From Octopus vulgaris (taxonomy: Eukaryota), in contig OX597820.1 of NCBI GenBank assembly GCA_951406725.2, positions 79,980,001 through 80,044,000 of the forward strand: a stretch of 64,000 bases of DNA, written 5' to 3'. A program made the position numbers and the translations under genes. Positions 5,271 through 60,077 of the stretch are shown here, piece by piece; position 1 is the first letter of the stretch; each line of letters starts with the position of its first letter. The notes beneath the pieces were generated by a model that saw only the letters and a list, made by a program, of their open reading frames with translations, made no database searches and had not been told where the DNA came from.

Positions 5271-5454
5271 AATGTGTGTGTGTATTTTCTTTAATACTTT
5301 ACCGTTTACTTATTCTAGTCATTGAACTGCGACCGTGCTGGTGCACCGCTCGGGAGGGCTCACAAGTACCCCTCAACCCACAAAAAGTACCCCTCACAAG
5401 TACCCTTCTACCCACAAAAAATGAAGCAAAACATTAGAAAGAGCCAATTAGATA

Positions 5455-5868
5455 TTAGTAAATGTCTATAAAAGAGGTAGGGTAGGGGTGACATTGATTC
5501 ATGACGTTGTTACCAGTTAAAGGAGCATACACTGTGAAAATTAAGATGATACCTTGATTGAGATCTAGGAAAACATTAGGGACTCAGTGGGACCCCTATG
5601 ACCCCCATTGTGTTCCATGCCACTTTAAACATTGTAGGCTATTCTTCTCTTAACTTTTCTTGCTGCAATGGTGACAACATGAAATTTTCTCATCTTCTTG
5701 CTCTGTTAAAATATTTAAGAAAAATTAAATTAATATATCTTGCCTGTTGAAAATCCATATTTCTTGCAGCTGAAGATAGCGCTGCATTGATGTAATGCTT
5801 GCATTGTTCAGTTAAATGGAGGCACTTGAAACGGCCGTACTGCAATACTACTTGACATCCTGTTACTT
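5455..5868 (+). mobile_element. Non-coding HHR-bearing element, family C (Penelope pLTR / retrozyme-like)
   Basis: 5590-5865 is homologous to 18650-18925; 5461-5488 matches 17081-17110; ends in an HHR. Confidence 0.7.
5764..5845 (+). ncRNA. Type-I hammerhead ribozyme, family C, core intact
   Basis: TTGCAG-CTGAAGA-[long imperfect stem II]-GAAAC-GGCC-GTA-CTGCAA: perfect 6-bp stem I, palindromic ACGGCCGT, GUA triplet. Confidence 0.8.
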
Positions 5869-5920
5869 CATTATTTACATTATTTACATTTGACGGATAT
5901 TTGTCCTCATCTTTGTTGCT

Positions 5921-5966
5921 AATACAATGTTTCGGCTAATATACCCTCCAGCCTTCATCAGGTGTC
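5921..5966 (-). ncRNA. Minimal hammerhead ribozyme, family A (left arm)
   Basis: Reverse complement gacac-CTGATGA-a-GGCTG..TAGCC-GAAA-ca-TT-gtatt; core intact, one stem I mismatch, palindrome decayed. Confidence 0.7.
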
Positions 5967-6013
5967 CTGGGGAAATTTCGAACCTGGGTTCTCATTCCTA
6001 AGTCATTTTGCGA

Positions 6014-6073
<60 letters not shown>

Positions 6074-6078
<5 letters not shown>

Positions 6079-6150
6079 TCACTGCCTAGAATCGAAATCG
6101 GAATTTTGGGGTTAGTAACCCGGGCTCTTAACAACTACACCATATGCCTG
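6074..6150 (-). ncRNA. tRNA-like (Pol III A/B box) module inside the family A element; not a functional tRNA
   Basis: Reverse complement ggtgtagttgttaagagcccgggttactaaccccaaaattccgatttcgattctaggcagtgacctg; second copy at 44471-44541 has the clearer B box gagttcgattcc. Confidence 0.65.
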
Positions 6151-6288: not shown

Positions 6289-6363
6289 AATGATAATAAT
6301 AATGATAATGATAACATCGAAAAATACCTTAGGAATGAGAACCCAGGTTCGAAATTTCCTCAA

Positions 6364-6409
6364 GACACCTGATGAAAGCTGGAGTGTATACCAGCCGAAG
6401 CGTTGTGTT
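6364..6409 (+). ncRNA. Minimal hammerhead ribozyme, family A (right arm), GAAA>GAAG
   Basis: gacac-CTGATGA-aa-GCTGG agtgtata CCAGC-c-GAAG-cg-TT-gtgtt. Confidence 0.7.
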
Positions 6410-6519
6410 AACAACAAACAAGATGAGGACAAATATCCGTCAAATGTAAATAACGTAAATAATGTACATAATTCCTCATCTCTTAAATCTAGAACTGTAT
6501 TATAGTGTTACTTATTTTG

Positions 6520-16886: not shown

Positions 16887-17108
16887 AACACTATGCCTTC
16901 AAAAGGACGTAAAACATACAATTCTAACAGGTACAACAGTTGAATACGACAGATAAACACACAAATATATTTATCTCTTTATCATCTATTAAATCTGAGA
17001 CTAGAAGACTGTCTGTTTTGCATAAAGAACAAGAGTGAGAAAAGAAATAAAACTTACGAAGTGTCAATTTGATAGAAGAAAGTGTCTATAAAAAAGAGGC
17101 AGGGTAGG

Positions 17109-17191
<83 letters not shown>

Positions 17192-17234: not shown

Positions 17235-17272
<38 letters not shown>

Positions 17273-17851
17273 GAAATGAAGAAAATGCTGACAAATAATT
17301 GAAGTAATTTAAGTAATTTAATTAGGTGAAAGTTCTTTTTACCGGTTGCGCATTTGTTATGCTTATCAAAATATAAAAGAGAGATTAGAGTTCCTTTCTT
17401 ATAGAATTTTTCCTCTTATCTGACTTTATGTTGGGTTTGCTGTCTCTTATATGTGAAAAAAGAGGCTCCAGAGTTGTTTTGGATTTGCTTGGTTTCGCGC
17501 CTAAAATTTTGATTGGTCATTATGAAGGGGTCACGTGAATGTTTGAATGGAAGTTGGTGTTGGGGTAAGAAAAAAGGCTCCAGAGAAGTTAAAATTTGGC
17601 TAGTGTCCCGCCTAAAATTTCTTATTGGCCATAATAAAGAGGTCACGTGAATGTTTAGAATTTTCGAAAATAGTGTTGTTGAAAATTCTTATTGTTCAGG
17701 CTGGTCAGTAGACGTCATGTGGATATTTTAAATAGCTTTTTAGCGCGTAGTTAGGGAGTGTATTTTCCGCTTGACTGGATAAGTAAGTTCGTTTAGAACA
17801 GGGAGAGCTGTATGTATGTATGTGTGTGCGCGCGCGCACACACATACATAT

Positions 17852-17888
17852 ATTTTGATAAGCATAACAAATGCGCAACCGGTAAAAA
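17852..17888 (+). ncRNA. Degenerate hammerhead motif, family G (identical inverted copy at 17336-17372)
   Basis: tt-TTGATAA-GCAT aacaa ATGC-GCAA-ccgg-TA-aa: correct topology with palindromic ACCGGT but three core substitutions. Confidence 0.5.
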
Positions 17889-17993
17889 GAACTTTCACCT
17901 AATTAAATTACTTAAATTACTTCAATTATTTGTCAGCATTTTCTTCATTTCCTTTTTTATATATCACCACTCGTGTTCGACATCTCCTTTTTT

Positions 17994-18058
<65 letters not shown>

Positions 18059-18815
18059 TCTTATATGAGACATTATTATTATCGGTTGAATTAGGTACTT
18101 AAATTGAAGCACCAAGTCAGACAGGTATTATCCGCATACTGGAAATAAGGTTAATAAAATCAAAATTAGCAACAGGATATCAAGTAGTGATGCAGTACGA
18201 CCTAATAATTAATTAATTAAGAAACAAGAATGCTATTAAACTGATTCTACATAATCTTCCTTTTTAATCTTTATACTTGATACATCCACATCTTTTAGCT
18301 ATTTTGGTTATGTTATCATTTGGAATTCATAAATTTTATCTTTATACAACATAACAATATTGTTTATAAACGTTCCACCATCATGCCCCTGATAAAATTT
18401 CCTTGTGTTAGCATCTTAATTTTCTTTGTGTCTTGCCCCTTTAACTGGTTATGAATATCATAATTTAAAATCTACCCCTACCCTGCTTCTTTTTTTATAG
18501 ACAGTTTCTTCTATCAAATTGACTCTTCTTAATGTTTTATTTCTTTTCTCACTCTTGTTCTTTATTCAAAATAGACACAGTCTTCTAGTCTCAGATTTAA
18601 TAGATGATAAAGAGATAAATAAATTAGAAATGAATTACAACCCTTACAATCCTATGACCCCACTATGCACAATACGATTCTAAGAAATTGTAGTCTATTC
18701 TTAACCACTTTCCTGCAATAGCGACAACATAAGTTTCTTCCATTGTCGTAATCTGTTGAAATGTTTAAGAAAAATTATATTAATGTGTCCTACTTGTGAA
18801 AAATTCTATATTTTG

Positions 18816-18901
18816 TGTAGCTGAAGATAGCACTGCATTTAAATTGATGTAATGATTGCATTGCTCAATTAAATGGAGTCGCTTGAAACGATCGTACTGC
18901 A
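18816..18901 (+). ncRNA. Type-I hammerhead ribozyme, family C, core intact
   Basis: TGTAG-CTGAAGA-[long stem II: cattt..attga/tcaattaaatg, gtaatg/cattgc]-GAAAC-GATC-GTA-CTGCA. Confidence 0.8.
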
Positions 18902-18934
18902 TTATTACTATTTGATATTCTGTTGATTATTTTG

Positions 18935-18977
<43 letters not shown>

Positions 18978-21906: not shown

Positions 21907-22774
21907 TATGTTTGAATTTTGCTTGATGTCTGTACAAGTTGGCTCCAAGTCTCACCCAGAGACCTCAAGAGACAACAGGTTGGAAGTTCACGTTGTTGTT
22001 ATGCCTAGTGCGCCATATATTTGGGTTTTTTTGGTGTTGTACTAGTGAATGTCTAATACATAAAAAAAAAAGTTTGTTTAAAAAAAAAAGTTTGTTTTAA
22101 ACCTTGGGATTACATAGAGAGTATTTTGCGTAGGATATGAGCAGATCCCATGTGCACTATCTTTTGAATTTCTGCCATTTTGGGGTTTCCTGGTATCTGA
22201 GTTAGGTAGCAATCAGTCCCTTTCGCTATCATTCCCAGGGCACCTATGACAACAGGTATTGTTTTAGTCTTCAGCTTCCACATTTTGCTGATTTCTATTT
22301 CAAGATCTTTATATTTGCTCAGTTTTTGGTAGGTCTTGACAGATACGTTTATATCGATTGGGACAGTCTTATCAATGAGGAGGCATGTTCTTTGTCTGAA
22401 GTCTTTCAATATGATGTCTGGCCTATTTGCATCTGTCTTTCTGTCAGTTTGAATGGTGAAGTTCCAGAGGAGTGAGATGTGGTCATTTTCAAGCACTGGA
22501 GGTGGATTGTGTTCCCACCAGTTTTTTTCATGGGGCAAATCCAGGTTTTTGCAAATTACCCAGTGAATATATTGTGCAGCTCTATCATGCCTGTTGAGGT
22601 ACTCTGTAGGCGCTAGAAGACTGCATTTGGAGACAACATGATCAATGGTTTCATTTTGTTGTCCGCATACACGACATGTTGGGCTACTGCCGTTCTTTAG
22701 TATGTTGGCCTGATAGTTTCTTGTTGGTAGGCATTGACCTTGAGCTGCTATGATAAACCCCTCTGTTTCAGATT
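21905..22774 (-). mobile_element. RLE-type (R4/Dong-like) LINE 3' fragment with an intact CCHC plus RLE frame
   Basis: ORF 22110-22790: ETEGFIIAAQ, CRVC..ETIDHVVSKC, RHD, RPDI, LID, KLSKYKDL, PVVIGALG; (TTA)n on both sides. Confidence 0.95.
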
Positions 22775-22775
22775 T

Positions 22776-23023
<248 letters not shown>

Positions 23024-28814: not shown

Positions 28815-28842
28815 ATGTGTATATATATATATATATATATTA

Positions 28843-29428
28843 TATAAAAGGGCTTAGTAAAATAAATTACTTTGCCGCATACTGAACTCATTAGAAATAG
28901 CAGCTAAAAAACTTTTTTAAAGCTATTTCTAATATATAGAAAATATATATAGTGTTTGCTTAATTCAACTCACAAAAGTTTGGGGGTAAGGACATTAAAA
29001 AATCAAATGCTAAGGTTATTTGAGAACGTACGTTTCAAGATTAGTCAAAACAACACTTCTATCTTCAGCTCAGAAACTCCTTGGTTTGGATTTGGAAACA
29101 CTGAAAGTAAGAACATACCCTTTCGAAGATCCGCTCGTAACTAACAGTGCCAACAAACCCAAATAAGCAAGTGAAGAATTTCTGTTCTCCCCTTTCCACC
29201 AGCGTGGGTTAAAATCATCAAACGCTATGCTTATTTCGGTAAAATCCGAAGCATTAATCAGAGGGAGATTAATTATAATTTCAACAATTGAGGGTAAATT
29301 CAATTAATTATTAATCAATTTCACCAAGTGTTAGTATGCATTTGCGTTGAATTCGCCTTAAATGGTCCCTTTGCATACTGAACACTTGGTGAAATTGATT
29401 AATAATTAATTAATTTTACCCTCAATTG

Positions 29429-29432
<4 letters not shown>
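28843..29432 (-). mobile_element. HHR-bearing fold-back element, family D, inside (TA)n
   Basis: Homologous to 48601-49411; terminal inversion 29283-29340/29373-29430. Confidence 0.8.
29021..29072 (-). ncRNA. Type-I hammerhead ribozyme, family D, core intact
   Basis: Reverse complement TGAG-CTGAAGA-[weak stem II]-GAAAC-GTAC-GTT-CTCA. Confidence 0.75.
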
Positions 29433-29521
<89 letters not shown>

Positions 29522-44055: not shown

Positions 44056-44304
44056 TGGCAATAAATGATATTGATTACTAGAATTACTCCAAAGTGGCAT
44101 ATTTTGGAAGTCGCAACCAGTTTATTACTGGTACTTACTGAGCTAAGGTAGGAACGTTCTGGAAATGTTAGAAATCATAAACCCATATGAGGATACATTA
44201 ATTCATCCAAGTAGATTGCAGCACTGCATTGTAATTAGATTCATCGAATTATTAAAAACCTTGCGGACGGAGATAAAACAACAGAAAACAAAACATAATC
44301 TTCG

Positions 44305-44542
44305 TTCTAGATTTAAGAGATGAGGAATTATGTACATTATTTACATTATTTACATTTGACGGATATTTGTCCTCATCTTGTTTGTTGTTAACACAACGTT
44401 TCGTCTGCTATACCCTCCAGCCTTCACCAAGTGTCTTGGGGAAATTTCGAACCTGGGTTCTCATTCCTAAGGTATGTCATAGTGGTTAAGAGCTCGGCTA
44501 CTAACTTCAAGATTCCGAGTTCGATTCCAGGCAGTGACCTGA
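44305..44542. mobile_element. Family A element, partial: HHR arm (44390-44435, - strand, core mutated to TTGGTGA) plus tRNA-like module
   Basis: Reverse complement of 6328-6497, followed by tagtggttaagagctcggctactaac...gagttcgattccaggcagtgacctg(aat)n. Confidence 0.85.
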
Positions 44543-44559
44543 ATAATAATTATAATAAT

Positions 44560-45175
44560 CACTTTTAGTCATCCACAGCCATCTTTTTTCTCTGTATGTC
44601 TTATCTTCAACATCCCTACGAAATTGACCATGCACTCTTCTTTACCCACCTATTTTCAGTTTCTTGTATAGTGCTTTATCTTTGTAATCTTTCATCCTAC
44701 ATAAGCCTGACCTTCTTACTTCTAGTAATAGCGGTTCTGTGGTATTTTTTACATACCATGCTATGTTGTTTTCTTCTGCTCTAATGCTGTGTTCGCATCC
44801 AGTAAGTCCTCTTCCCCCTCTTTTTCTTTGTACATACAGTTTGTGTGTGCAACTTTTTGATTGGAGTGACCCATATCTAGTTAGCAACTTCCTTGTCTTT
44901 TTGCCTAAGCTGTTTAGTTCGTCTACCGTCCATGCGATTACCCCTGATCCATATCTAAGGAATGAAACCGCCCAGGTGTTGATAGCTTCGATCTTATTAC
45001 GTCCGTTTGATTTCGACTTAAGGATCAGTCTCAGTCTGCGCAAGTACTACACCTTAAATTTGTCTGTCATTTCTTTCTCCGTCAATTTATCCATATCCAA
45101 ATTCCCCAAGTACTTATAGCCCGTCTCTTCTATTTGCTTCATAACCTCTCCCGACGGTATCGTTAGTCCGCCCAT
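44560..45175 (-). mobile_element. R4/Dong-like LINE fragment (end of RT / thumb region)
   Basis: GYKYLG...RRLRLILKSK.NGRNKIEAINTWAV..LRYG...KTRKLLT...LYV.RKRGGRGL. Confidence 0.92.
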
Positions 45176-45567
45176 ACTCAACTGGACGTCCTGTTCGATC
45201 TTCATCTTCAAGGCTGAAATCTCCACTTCTGAATTTTGCAAACCATCTTCTGCAAGTTCTTTCATTCAAGCATTCTTTCCCATAAACTGAGTGTAGGTTT
45301 CGAGTCGCTTCGGTTGTTGAGTTTTCTTTTTTGTACTCGTAAAGCATTATGTGCCTCAAATGCTCTTTGGATACTTCCATGTTAGAAAGGTTTTTAATCG
45401 GAGAAATTTTCATTTTATTATTCTGTAAAATAATTTTTAATTAGTTTAAATGTACACAAATGCATAAAAGTAATTTTTAATTCCATTAGACATTCTAAAA
45501 TACTATTAAATTTCATTCAAGTTTAAAAAATATAAAATCGGACAGAATTTATGGGAATGACCTGATA
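45176..45567 (-). mobile_element. Mariner 5' fragment (TIR plus transposase N-terminal HTH)
   Basis: MEVSKEHLRHIMLYEYKK...ATRNLHSVYG...RTCRRWFAKFRSGDFSLEDEDRTGRP; end TA-TCAGGTCATTCCCATAAATTCTGTCCG. Confidence 0.92.
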
Positions 45568-48079: not shown

Positions 48080-48400
48080 AGGCGCATGGCTTAGTGGTTA
48101 GGGCATTCGGCTCATGAGCTTAAGGTCGTGGGTTCAATTTCCGGCGACGCGTTGTGTCCTCGAGCAAGACACTTTATTTTACGTTGCTTCAGTTCACTCA
48201 GCTGGCAAAAATGAGTAGTACCTGTATTTCAAAGGCCCGGCCATGTCACACACCGTGTCACGCTGAATCTCCCTGAGGACTACGTTAATGGAACCCATGT
48301 CAGTGGATTGCTCAGCCACTTGTACGTTAATTTCACGAGCAACGTGTTTCGTTGATGGTATCAGCTGAGACCCTCGACGTCGTAACTGACAGTGCTCCAT
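48080..48400 (+). mobile_element. tRNA-derived SINE, S3 variant
   Basis: ggcgcatggcttagtggttagggcattcgg...gggttcaatttcc head. Confidence 0.85.
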
Positions 48401-48600
48401 ATGTATGTGTGTATATATATATATATATACATACATACATACAGACACACACACACATACATACATATATATTGGTTTTGTGCTGAGTTTTATTTGAGAA
48501 CATACTCTTTGTGGAGAATGGCGATTTGACGTCTATATCTAGCATATTGACTGTCCACTTTTCGTGTTCAGTCCTTAATTTGTATATATATATATATATA

Positions 48601-49409
48601 TTACATTGTATAAAAGGGCTTAGTAAAATAAATTACTTTGCCACATACTGAACTCATTAGAAATAGCAGCCAAAAAAAGAATTTTTAGCGATTTCTAATA
48701 CTTAAAGAAGATTTCTCTCAGATAGTGTTTACTCAAAATAACCCACGAAGGTATGGGGGTAAAAACATTAAAAAATCACAAATGTAAAGATTATTTGAGA
48801 ACGTACGTTTCTAGATCAGCCAAATACAATTCGACATTTCTTTCGTCAGCCCAAAATTTCTTAATTCGGATTTGGAAACACTGAAAGCAGGAGCATACTC
48901 TTTTGGCGACTTTTCACCTCAGAAGAACCGTTCAAACTAACAGTGCCAACAAATTCAAAATATGCAAGCGAAGAATTCCTGCTCTCCCCTTCCACCCACG
49001 TGGGTCAGACTAGTAAACACCATATTTTATCGGTGAAAACCGAGGCATTAAACAGAGAGAAATGAATTATAATTTCAACAATTGAGGGTAAAATTAATTA
49101 GCTATTAATCAATTTCACCAAGTATTCAGTATGTAAAGGGACCATTTAAGGCGAATTCAAAATATTACATTGTATAAAAGGGCTTAGTAAAATAAATTAC
49201 TTTGCCACATACTGAACTTATTAGAAATGGCTAAAAAATCTTTTTTTGGCTGCTATTTCTAATGAGTTCAGTATGTGGCAAAGTAATTTATTTTACTAAG
49301 CCCTTTTATACAATGTAATATTTTGAATTCGCCTTAAATGGTCCCTTTACATACTGAATACTTGGTGAAATTGATTAATAGCTAATTAATTTTACCCTCA
49401 ATTGTTGAA

Positions 49410-49411
<2 letters not shown>
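48601..49411 (-). mobile_element. HHR-bearing element, family D: 564-bp unit, partial direct repeat and 340-bp palindrome
   Basis: 48601-48665 repeated at 49165-49228; arms 49072-49228 and 49255-49411 nearly perfectly inverted; (TA)n flanks. Confidence 0.88.
48794..48855 (-). ncRNA. Type-I hammerhead ribozyme, family D, core intact
   Basis: Reverse complement TTTGGG-CTGACGA-a-aga..GTCGAAT tgt ATTTGGC..tct-a-GAAAC-GTAC-GTT-CTCAAA. Confidence 0.82.
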
Positions 49412-49466
<55 letters not shown>

Positions 49467-49619
49467 TGTGCGCGCGTGTGTAAAGGGGATTCATACAGTT
49501 TCACTTGAAAGTCAAACTGTGAATCTACTTGTAATTCTCGTTGAATACTTTATATTTCTGCAGAAAAACAAATGGTAAAAAACCTTGCTACTCGGTAATA
49601 GTTATAATCAAAGCTCTGA

Positions 49620-55492: not shown

Positions 55493-56172
55493 TTTAAATT
55501 TAAAATGAGAGTGAGAAATTAGATATTAATTTAATTAACATCGATTTCACACCAGTGGTCTAGCATATAAAAAAAAACTGAAGGTTCAGTAAAATTGTAT
55601 TATATACATGTTGGAGGGAAACCACTATGTGGATACCTTTATGCTAGAAATAGATCCGCTATGGTCTAACCACTAAGAAATGTTCTCAAGAAAAATTTAG
55701 TAAAACAACCAAAGCGTAATCGAGCAAGACAAAAGAAAAAGCAATAAAATTATGGATTATTCGTATACATGTTTCACTATCAGCATATTACGTAATTTTA
55801 CTTACATAAATGTCCGTAGATCATCGGTGCGACCGTCCAGATGAATATAATTTGCAGGACTGCATACTAGGACATCCGCACGAAGTCAGATCTGTAAACA
55901 GTTCTACCCGGTACACTCGTGGTTACTATTTCAAATGTCCTCGTTTTGGCGCGCTAAATTACGAGGACATCTTCATCTCCAGTCTTGTATGTGTGTTTGG
56001 CAAGGATGGTTGCTATTTTTAGAAATAGGGTGAGAGGTTGATGGGTGGGGGAAAACATTCACATGATCTGATTTCGAACAGTTTGTGGAATTAAAAGAAT
56101 TTGTTTTTGTTTCTGAGCTAGTTTGTCATGGTTCGGTGGGTTTTGGACTGGATTTAGAGTTCAAGATGGTGT
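55493..56172 (-). mobile_element. Decayed Penelope-like 3' end: ORF tail plus degenerate HHR (family F, 55918-55982)
   Basis: Reverse complement reads TILNSK...RNKNKFF (cf. PLE tail LN.R.E....CRH.NKF.L), then ATGAAGA-TGTCCTCGT..ACGAGGACA-ttt-GAAA-tag-TA. Confidence 0.45.
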
Positions 56173-58897: not shown

Positions 58898-60077
58898 CTG
58901 ACATAGAAAGACTATATATACAACGTATAGAAGGTGGTAGAGGCCTTATACAGCTGGAAAACTACTATAAAATAACCATCATAGGACTGCAAAAATACCT
59001 ACTTCAGAAGGAAGGAAAACTGATCCAGATAGCAGCAAAACACGAGCAAAACAAAAAACTGTTCTCAGTATTTAAGGAAGCTGACAAATACAAACAAGAA
59101 ATCATACCACCTAATAAACACAAAAAGAAGAAGAAGATGATGAAGAAACAACAAAAGCTATAAAACAAATGAAATCCAAACTAAAAATAGAACAGCAACG
59201 AGCCATGATAAAACGATGGCAAGAAAAACCCCTTCATGGTAAATACTGCACTAAACTAAACGCAAAAGAAATAGACAAAGAAAAATCCCAGCAATGGTTG
59301 AGAAGCTCAGGACTCAAAGCAGAAACAGAGGGATTTTTAATTGCAGCACAAGACCAAAGCTTCCCCACCAGAAATTACCAAAAACATGTAATGAAAAGAA
59401 ATATTACAAGTAACTGCAGAATATGTGGAGATGGACAAGAAACAATAAATCATATTATCTCTAGCTGCCCAGTCCTGGCTAAGAAGGAATATATTCACAG
59501 ACATGACAGAGTTGGAACCTACATACATTGGAAGCTATGCCAACATTATGGAATAACAACAGAAAAAAGATGGTATAGGCACACACCAGAAAAGGTCACA
59601 GAAAACGAGAAAGCAACCATACTCTGGGATATGCCGATACACACAGATAGAGAAATTAAGGCCAACAGACCAGATATAGTTGTCAGAGATCATGAAGAAA
59701 AAAATGCTTTCTAATTGATGTATCAATACCGGCAGATGACAACGTGTCTCTAAAAGAAATGGAGAAACTCTCAAAATACAAAGACCTGGAAATAGAGGTA
59801 ACTAGAATGTGGAACCTGAAAACAGAAACAATTCCTATCATGCATTAGGCATGATAAAAAAATATTCAGACAAATACATAACAAAAACACCAGGACTTAC
59901 AAACACATATAACATACAGAAAATTGCACTACTAGTTACTGCACACATCCTACGCAGAACACTTTCCATACAATAACCATCAGAGCATATACAACAAATC
60001 ACAGCACATACCCAAGGCACACAGAGCTGCGCTCGGTAGTGAAGTGAAAGCACGCTATAAAAATAAAACTACTGAAT
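58897..60077 (+). mobile_element. R4/Dong-like LINE 3' 1.2 kb (post-RT, CCHC, RLE, 3'UTR), frameshifted
   Basis: SDIERLYIQRIEGGRGL; WQEKPLHG; LKAETEGFLIAAQDQ; CRICGDGQETINHIISSC; RHD; RPDIV; LIDVSIP; KLSKYKDL. Confidence 0.96.

Follow-up and report, generated by a model that had tools for sequence, protein, structure and literature searches.

A short hammerhead repeat in Octopus vulgaris with the insertion layout of Penelope-like elements

A 564-nt repeat of Octopus vulgaris that carries a hammerhead motif but no open reading frame (ORF), and whose copies share outer ends flanked by (TA)n, is in our judgement probably a non-autonomous, retrozyme-like Penelope-like element (PLE), copied by the enzyme of an autonomous PLE that possibly belongs to the Hydra clade. 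Two whole copies of the repeat lie in the window, a stretch of 64,000 nucleotides of contig OX597820.1 to which all coordinates refer: copy 1 at 48601 to 49411 and copy 2 at about 28840 to 29437. Their features are as follows.

48583 to 48600, no strand: (TA)n target tract, left flank of copy 1 (from sequence)
48601 to 49164, minus strand (RNA sense): full ORF-less 564-bp unit, from sequence comparison and the absence of a Pfam match in 4 of its 4 longest frames; the left end is putative priming site B
48643 to 48653, minus strand: stem arm pairing with 49124 to 49134 across the unit junction; the pair 48643/49134 is A-U here and G-C in copy 2
48656 to 48699, minus strand: internal hairpin with arms of 9 to 12 bp, whose repeat fixes the copy 1 joint
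48794 to 48855, minus strand: type I hammerhead motif found by descriptor (6-bp stem I, CUGACGA, long stem II, GAAA, palindromic stem III ACGUACGU), with a predicted cut after GUU at 48800
49072 to 49164, minus strand: 93-nt "tail" between putative priming sites B and A
49165 to 49218, minus strand: 5'-truncated second unit (pseudo-LTR, pLTR), 54 nt identical to unit positions 1 to 54
49219 to 49411, plus strand: inverted 5'-truncated copy (unit 100 to 1, then 564 to 472), head to head; the right end is putative priming site A
49072 to 49411, no strand: 340-bp palindrome from the overlap of forward and inverted copies
49412 to 49434, no strand: (TA)n tract, right flank of copy 1 (from sequence)
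28840 to 29340, minus strand: forward part of copy 2 (about unit 5 to 535), with the hammerhead core at 29068 to 29062 and the predicted cut after 29025
29341 to 29346, no strand: six unmatched bases at the joint of copy 2
29347 to 29437, plus strand: inverted part of copy 2 (about unit 560 to 470), ending in (TA)n at site A

The repeat unit of copy 1 has a GC content of 34% and the length of 564 bp that a first-pass annotation of this DNA had given it. It is followed immediately by a re-entry into its own start, as that annotation had also described, of which 54 nt are identical; the similarity continues to 49231 by way of a hairpin arm, with mismatches at positions 55 and 65 of the re-entry. 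This partial tandem provides copy 1 with a pLTR, and copy 2 ends before one full unit is complete. The remaining 193 nt of copy 1 are the reverse complement of unit positions 472 to 564 followed by 1 to 100, with 2 mismatches, and correspond to the reverse stretch previously put at about 160 to 190 nt. The palindrome of copy 1 arises where these forward and inverted copies overlap. At 340 bp it is as near-perfect as had been claimed, with 160-nt arms that are spaced by 20 nt and differ at 2 positions; both mismatches fall within the hairpin, and 147 bp of each arm are identical around a 46-bp centre. The layout can be read as two primed strands: one of 618 nt from the left, which continues past both the unit junction and the predicted cut site of the hammerhead, and one of 193 nt from the right. 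The 93-nt tail is internal in the forward unit and terminal on the inverted copy only.

Copy 2 is 78% identical to copy 1 over 537 columns and is built on the same plan, with about 500 nt from the left, about 90 nt from the right and six unmatched bases between the two. The left outer end lies at about unit position 1 in copy 1 and about 5 in copy 2, and the right outer end at about 472 and about 466 to 476, respectively, in each case against (TA)n. Because both outer ends coincide, the copies are not permuted against each other, and the earlier description of the unit as circularly permuted is not borne out: the two copies start within about 5 nt of one another and have their right ends in common as well. 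With random starts on a 564-nt circle, both ends would fall within 8 nt of each other with a p of about 0.001, a rough figure from two copies. What distinguishes the copies is the inner joint, since copy 2 runs forward to about unit position 535 and continues inverted from about 560, in agreement with the different fold-back point that had been noticed for this copy at 28.8 kb. In the ribozyme sense, each insertion shows two outward-pointing 3' ends (2/2 whole copies), and in both an inverted 5'-truncated copy is attached head to head at the 5' end. Fixed 3' ends with an optional tail are thus a property of 2/2 copies, the only two whole ones.

A type I hammerhead motif, in sense orientation and upstream of the 3' end, was recognised by descriptor in both copies. 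Its parts follow in the order stem I, CUGA[C/A]GA, an extra base, a stem II opening with AGA/UCU, another extra base, GAAA, the self-complementary ACGUACGU and the cut site GUU. The cores read CUGACGA at 48849 to 48843 in copy 1 and CUGAAGA at 29068 to 29062 in copy 2, both on the minus strand, and inspection of the motif upheld this previously reported pair of cores together with their difference in stem I (G-U versus A-U). The 3' part is GAAAC-GUAC-GUU in both. The predicted cut lies 184 to 199 nt from site B and 292 nt from site A. With stem checks, the descriptor matched three times in the window (copies 1 and 2 and one site at 5770), against a mean of 0.04 matches in 50 block shuffles. 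The hammerhead call rests on this descriptor because Rfam returned no hammerhead, either among the 20 matches of the element at E<=10, where only miRNA-type hairpins below gathering scores appeared, or among the best 150 of 238 matches for the whole window. The minimal fold of the isolated hammerhead is not the active form (z +0.3 and +0.7), and a palindromic stem III such as this one is of the dimer type according to Cervera and de la Pena (2014; PMC4209133).

The window holds further elements of related appearance. A second family with Hydra-style hammerheads occupies 5419 to 5889, 18409 to 18945 and 16964 to 17110, with cores at 5770 and 18821 on the plus strand; the two are 74% alike and have a long stem II and a palindromic loop III. 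The copy at 18.8 kb ends about 42 nt past the cut, in (TA)n, and carries in inverted orientation a segment that lies direct, upstream of the ribozyme, in the copy at 5.4 kb. To judge from these copies, this family is likely to be built on a short unit in the same way. Yet another PLE end, the third and resembling a minimal hammerhead, is found at 5869 to 6013, 6317 to 6495 and 44304 to 44475, with inverted pairs around (AAT)n; at 6075 to 6137 and 44480 to 44541 it is joined head to head with a piece that resembles a tRNA by eye. The stretch from 17269 to 17955 is a (TA)n element with 107-bp perfect terminal inverted repeats, an internal direct repeat of about 110 bp and no hammerhead by descriptor, and is likely a MITE. 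Among the segments 22113 to 22796, 59118 to 59711 and 45117 to 45440 are LINE fragments with zf-RVT matches beside (ATT)n and a Mos1-type transposase HTH fragment. For the LINE fragment at 22113 to 22796, the best relative with a name comes from Octopus bimaculoides (76% identity), another named match from an octopus reaches 78%, and the other matches listed lie at 48 to 62%, which makes an octopus host likely.

The 564-bp unit closes without an ORF, and the element is therefore non-autonomous. Upstream of the hammerhead, the tail is reached after about 220 nt in both copies (222 nt), the space in which an autonomous PLE would hold an ORF between its pLTRs, and no RT/GIY-YIG ORF is present. 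Six-frame translation of the unit meets frequent stops, 0/4 of the longest frames of both copies matched Pfam, and the six frames of the window contain no cluster of PLE protein motifs. The 77-aa frame of copy 2 has a sole phmmer match, P0001 (E 3e-8), which we attribute to chance, the matched protein being a GC-rich tandem repeat aligned in seven stretches.

As RNA, the unit is predicted to be strongly structured compared with shuffled sequences. In the ribozyme sense (minus strand) the two copies fold with z of -5.7 and -6.1, versus -3.0 and -4.2 for the plus strand; folded as a circle, the unit reaches a z of -7.5 (30 shuffles), and the 196 nt spanning the unit junction reach -5.5. Long helices in the unit fold bring the two sides of the cut site together. 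Identity between the copies is 89% in the 93-nt tail and end regions versus 75 to 83% in the middle of the unit. Three of 136 consensus pairs are changed on both sides between the two copies, and conservation of structure in these two copies was not significant under a substitution-shuffle null (P 0.07 to 0.09 for the minus strand, 0.02 to 0.05 for the plus strand). The predicted strong fold and the conserved ends would fit a protein-binding region around the priming sites.

Contigs from four public runs were aligned to 48400 to 49600. Depth summed over the unit was about 9,000 to 1,250,000, as against 32 to 52 on the unique right flank (runs X1 to X3; depth is not copy number), and the element is a very abundant family. 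Contig depth rises about tenfold at site A, where two contigs of run X9 start after (TA)n. Of 39 joints, 15 are listed, and 14 of these pass from forward to inverted, at differing places and each in one contig of depth 47 to 180; with sides of only 20 to 28 bases at 80% likeness these joints are unreliable, and the reference reveals only some joint types. None among the contigs listed spans the joint of copy 1 itself. Two X1 contigs bridge the unit junction with at least 31 bases on each side, so that this junction occurs natively in other copies. At many sites copy 1 departs from the majority base; it probably represents a minor subfamily, of which it is likely a young member because its internal repeats show only 2 differences in 247 nt; copy 2 is likely older because its arms differ more from each other. 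Exact-pattern scans of metagenome contigs, prokaryote genomes and viral contigs gave 0 matches. To the left of the (TA)n tract, at 48480 to 48580, lies a separate short repeat of very high depth in the public runs; one 16-base word of it recurs in the hammerhead, on the 3' side, and the window has a second, weak copy of this repeat at 55640 to 55712.

The arrangement of the two copies follows a pattern described for PLEs, in which a truncated copy (the pLTR) precedes the full copy and an inverted 5'-truncated copy lies adjacent, with a tail of 30 to 40 bp at one end and microsatellites as targets (Craig et al. 2021; PMC8557442). In the account of Arkhipova et al. (2013; PMC3846280), an inverted pLTR and the direct one overlap by 15 bp, the joint shows palindromes, and self-priming is the explanation that the authors prefer. 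For a purified PLE protein, Frangieh et al. (2024; PMC11167929) report cutting and extension of both strands of AT-rich DNA, extension from two internal RNA sites that bound the tail, and dispensable ribozyme cleavage, with uncut RNA as the main substrate (PAc). On this model, the minus strand of the octopus repeat would be transcribed as more than one unit, and the PLE protein would bind the folded region spanning the unit junction and nick both strands of the (TA)n tract. One cDNA would then start from each nick, the left-flank one at site B and the right-flank one at site A, two fixed positions inside the RNA with 93 nt between them. The two cDNAs would stop at variable points and be joined head to head, and their overlap would yield the palindrome.

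The inner joint constrains the last of these steps. In copy 1 it coincides exactly with the internal hairpin's base, and the loop found there is the reverse complement of the unit loop (2/26 mismatches, versus 17/26 for the forward loop). With the loop in this reverse orientation, the strand that traversed the unit did not snap back on itself. Hence the strand flip at the hairpin proposed in the first-pass annotation is right as to place, but its copying back by the advancing strand is excluded by the orientation of the loop. Instead, the 3' ends of the two cDNAs may have annealed through the hairpin arms, or the right-primed (A-primed) strand may have passed the hairpin and then folded back. 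Copy 2 has no such hairpin at its joint and shows a 6-nt filler. The broader proposal of that annotation, reverse transcription of a circular or multimeric RNA with template switching at a hairpin, holds for the retro-origin, the absence of an ORF from the ribozyme unit, a template exceeding one unit (the 618-nt run) and a role of the hairpin in copy 1; it does not hold for random permutation, given the shared ends, or for copy-back, given that the inverted segment starts at a fixed site of its own beside (TA)n.

Read-through of the cut site in copy 1 means that the template held at least about 1.3 units, either as a circle or as an uncut linear multimer. This bears on a refinement of the PLE explanation that differs from it only in the template: tandem masters would be transcribed, dimeric hammerheads would cut out a 564-nt monomer, and a PLE enzyme would go round the circularised monomer more than once. 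This route was put forward by Cervera and de la Pena (PMC4209133; PMC7229834), and it agrees with the passage of the left-primed copy through cut site and junction (618 nt), with the identity of three internal repeats of unit 1 to 54, and with a circular fold (z -7.5) whose long helices join the sides of the cut site. We hold it as a tentative possibility, however, given that each copy has a single hammerhead and that a tandem with two or more hammerhead units occurs in 0/2 copies in the window (contigs of the public runs are too short to reveal arrays). The minimal fold, moreover, does not contain the active hammerhead, stem III is of the dimer type with GUU as its site, PAc needs no cleavage and has uncut RNA as its main substrate (PMC11167929), and an uncut linear RNA of at least 1.3 units gives the same layout. 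A more specific form of this cycle, which we regard as rather doubtful, makes the family an abundant octopus retrozyme, a hammerhead circle of about 560 nt copied by rolling reverse transcription through a Hydra-clade enzyme while keeping the two-site inverted-copy signature and a tail more than twice as long as published ones. If true, it would offer a direct genomic footprint of the mobilisation of animal retrozyme circles, and the circular-template model of PLE tandems would gain a substrate that is both young and short.

The remaining explanations are far less probable. Reverse transcription of a circle from random starts, with the advancing strand switching template at the hairpin and copying back, would place the copy 1 joint at the hairpin base and in register, as is seen; it is nevertheless improbable, for the ends are shared and not permuted, the loop is reverse-oriented without snap-back (2 versus 17 of 26 mismatches), nothing would make the inverted arm stop at one site in both copies, and the joint of copy 2 is a 6-nt filler without hairpin. 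The 5'-truncated end (pLTR) of an ordinary autonomous PLE would have the same architecture and ribozyme (PMC4209133; PMC8557442; PMC3846280). Of the two signs that the first-pass annotation had named as pointing to an ordinary pLTR and against its own reading, fixed ends are seen, as in a PLE, but an attached Penelope ORF is missing; with the tail reached after 222 nt in both copies, a unit that closes without an ORF, no Pfam match and a GC-rich tandem-repeat protein as the sole library match, we consider this origin highly improbable. Inverted repeats and (TA)n flanks, both present here, are common in foldback/MITE and Helitron-type DNA elements, and palindromes are prone to mis-assembly, with none of the listed contigs spanning the copy 1 joint. 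A DNA element of this kind or an assembly artefact is nonetheless the least probable origin of all: the outer ends are different unit positions and not terminal inverted repeats, the hammerhead motif is conserved, the palindrome has an asymmetric centre, copy 2 repeats the plan with arms that are not alike, and other joints occur in three public runs.

For the preferred reading, that of a non-autonomous PLE, the clade of the helper is suggested by the (TA)n target and the Hydra-style hammerhead, a comparison confined to the Hydra-clade table. By our count by eye in that table (PMC8557442), the core is followed by U and GAA is preceded by U in 14/25 families, 10/25 are cut after GUU, and 26/27 of those listed insert into (TA)n; copy 2 shares the U/U around stem II, and copy 1 has A/A. 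The clade also includes a family from O. bimaculoides, Hydra-1_Obim (PMC8557442), whose hammerhead and 3' end differ from the octopus unit when compared by eye. Six words of the unit found no match in the consensus file of Naiad, Chlamys and Hydra elements, searched on one strand and with wrapped lines. Among the Hydra consensus sequences (n=24), the distance from cut to end is 30 to 48 nt in 10/24 and 88 to 153 nt in 11/24, two groups that may hint at an unrecognised optional tail of about 80 to 100 nt in that clade; the octopus distances (184 to 292 nt) exceed those of 23/24 (30 to 153 nt). On these sequence features we would give a Hydra-clade helper a little over an even chance. A Neptune helper is possible, Neptune PLEs also being tied to microsatellites (PMC8557442). 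We rejected Naiad as the helper: the Naiads of octopus do insert into (TA)n, but according to the literature they have long been inactive and lack canonical hammerheads (PMC8557442), and there was no word match in the consensus file.

As far as the literature shows, the 564-bp repeat is new as a family, and its architecture and mechanism are already known. We found no paper on it; Repbase and Dfam lay outside the scope of the search, and an O. vulgaris repeat library with 190 Penelope-like families, in whose consulted description ribozymes are not mentioned (PMC13282606), may include it. A PLE specialist would not be surprised by the architecture, and the value of the element is as a test object. 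Two questions are open in print, namely how animal retrozymes are mobilised, with PLEs as proposed helpers, and how the tandem and inverted ends of PLEs form. Being short and abundant, with one very young member and with the PLE signature on a unit of retrozyme-like kind, this family could serve to tell circular templates from linear ones.

In common with PLEs, the octopus repeat has the partial tandem, the head-to-head inverted 5'-truncated copy, a short overlap at the joint, a tail at one end, an AT-rich target and a sense type I hammerhead. Unlike them, it has no ORF in the unit, its ends lie 184 to 292 nt past the cut site, and its tail measures 93 nt compared to the published 30 to 40; this long tail is the one unusual trait of the family. 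With Hydra-clade PLEs in particular it shares the (TA)n target, the CUGAAGA-U...U-GAA layout of the core, the frequent GUU site and the presence in octopus, and differs from them in its longer stem II and self-complementary even loop III. Non-autonomous PLEs are also reported from Chlamydomonas (PMC8557442; bioRxiv 10.1101/2022.05.23.493040). The Chlamys elements MRC1 and Chlamys-N4 described in these sources are likewise ORF-less passengers with pLTRs, microsatellite targets and short truncated insertions, but they occur in green algae, target (C)n or (CA)n and generally lack a canonical hammerhead.

Animal retrozymes are described as tandem hammerhead repeats expressed as circles, with PLEs as likely helpers (Cervera and de la Pena 2020; PMC7229834), and Li et al. 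(2026; bioRxiv 10.64898/2026.07.22.740005) link retrozymes to the pLTRs of PLEs, report many dispersed monomers and observed cleavage in 1/9 dimers tested. Unlike these retrozymes, the octopus copies are dispersed 1.1-mers, approximately, with an inverted copy and a single ribozyme in place of arrays with at least two. With animal non-LTR retrozymes they nevertheless share a short, ORF-less, AT-rich and structured unit, within the retrozyme size range of 51 to 972 bp (PMC7229834; bioRxiv 10.64898/2026.07.22.740005), as well as a type I hammerhead and a proposed dependence on PLEs.
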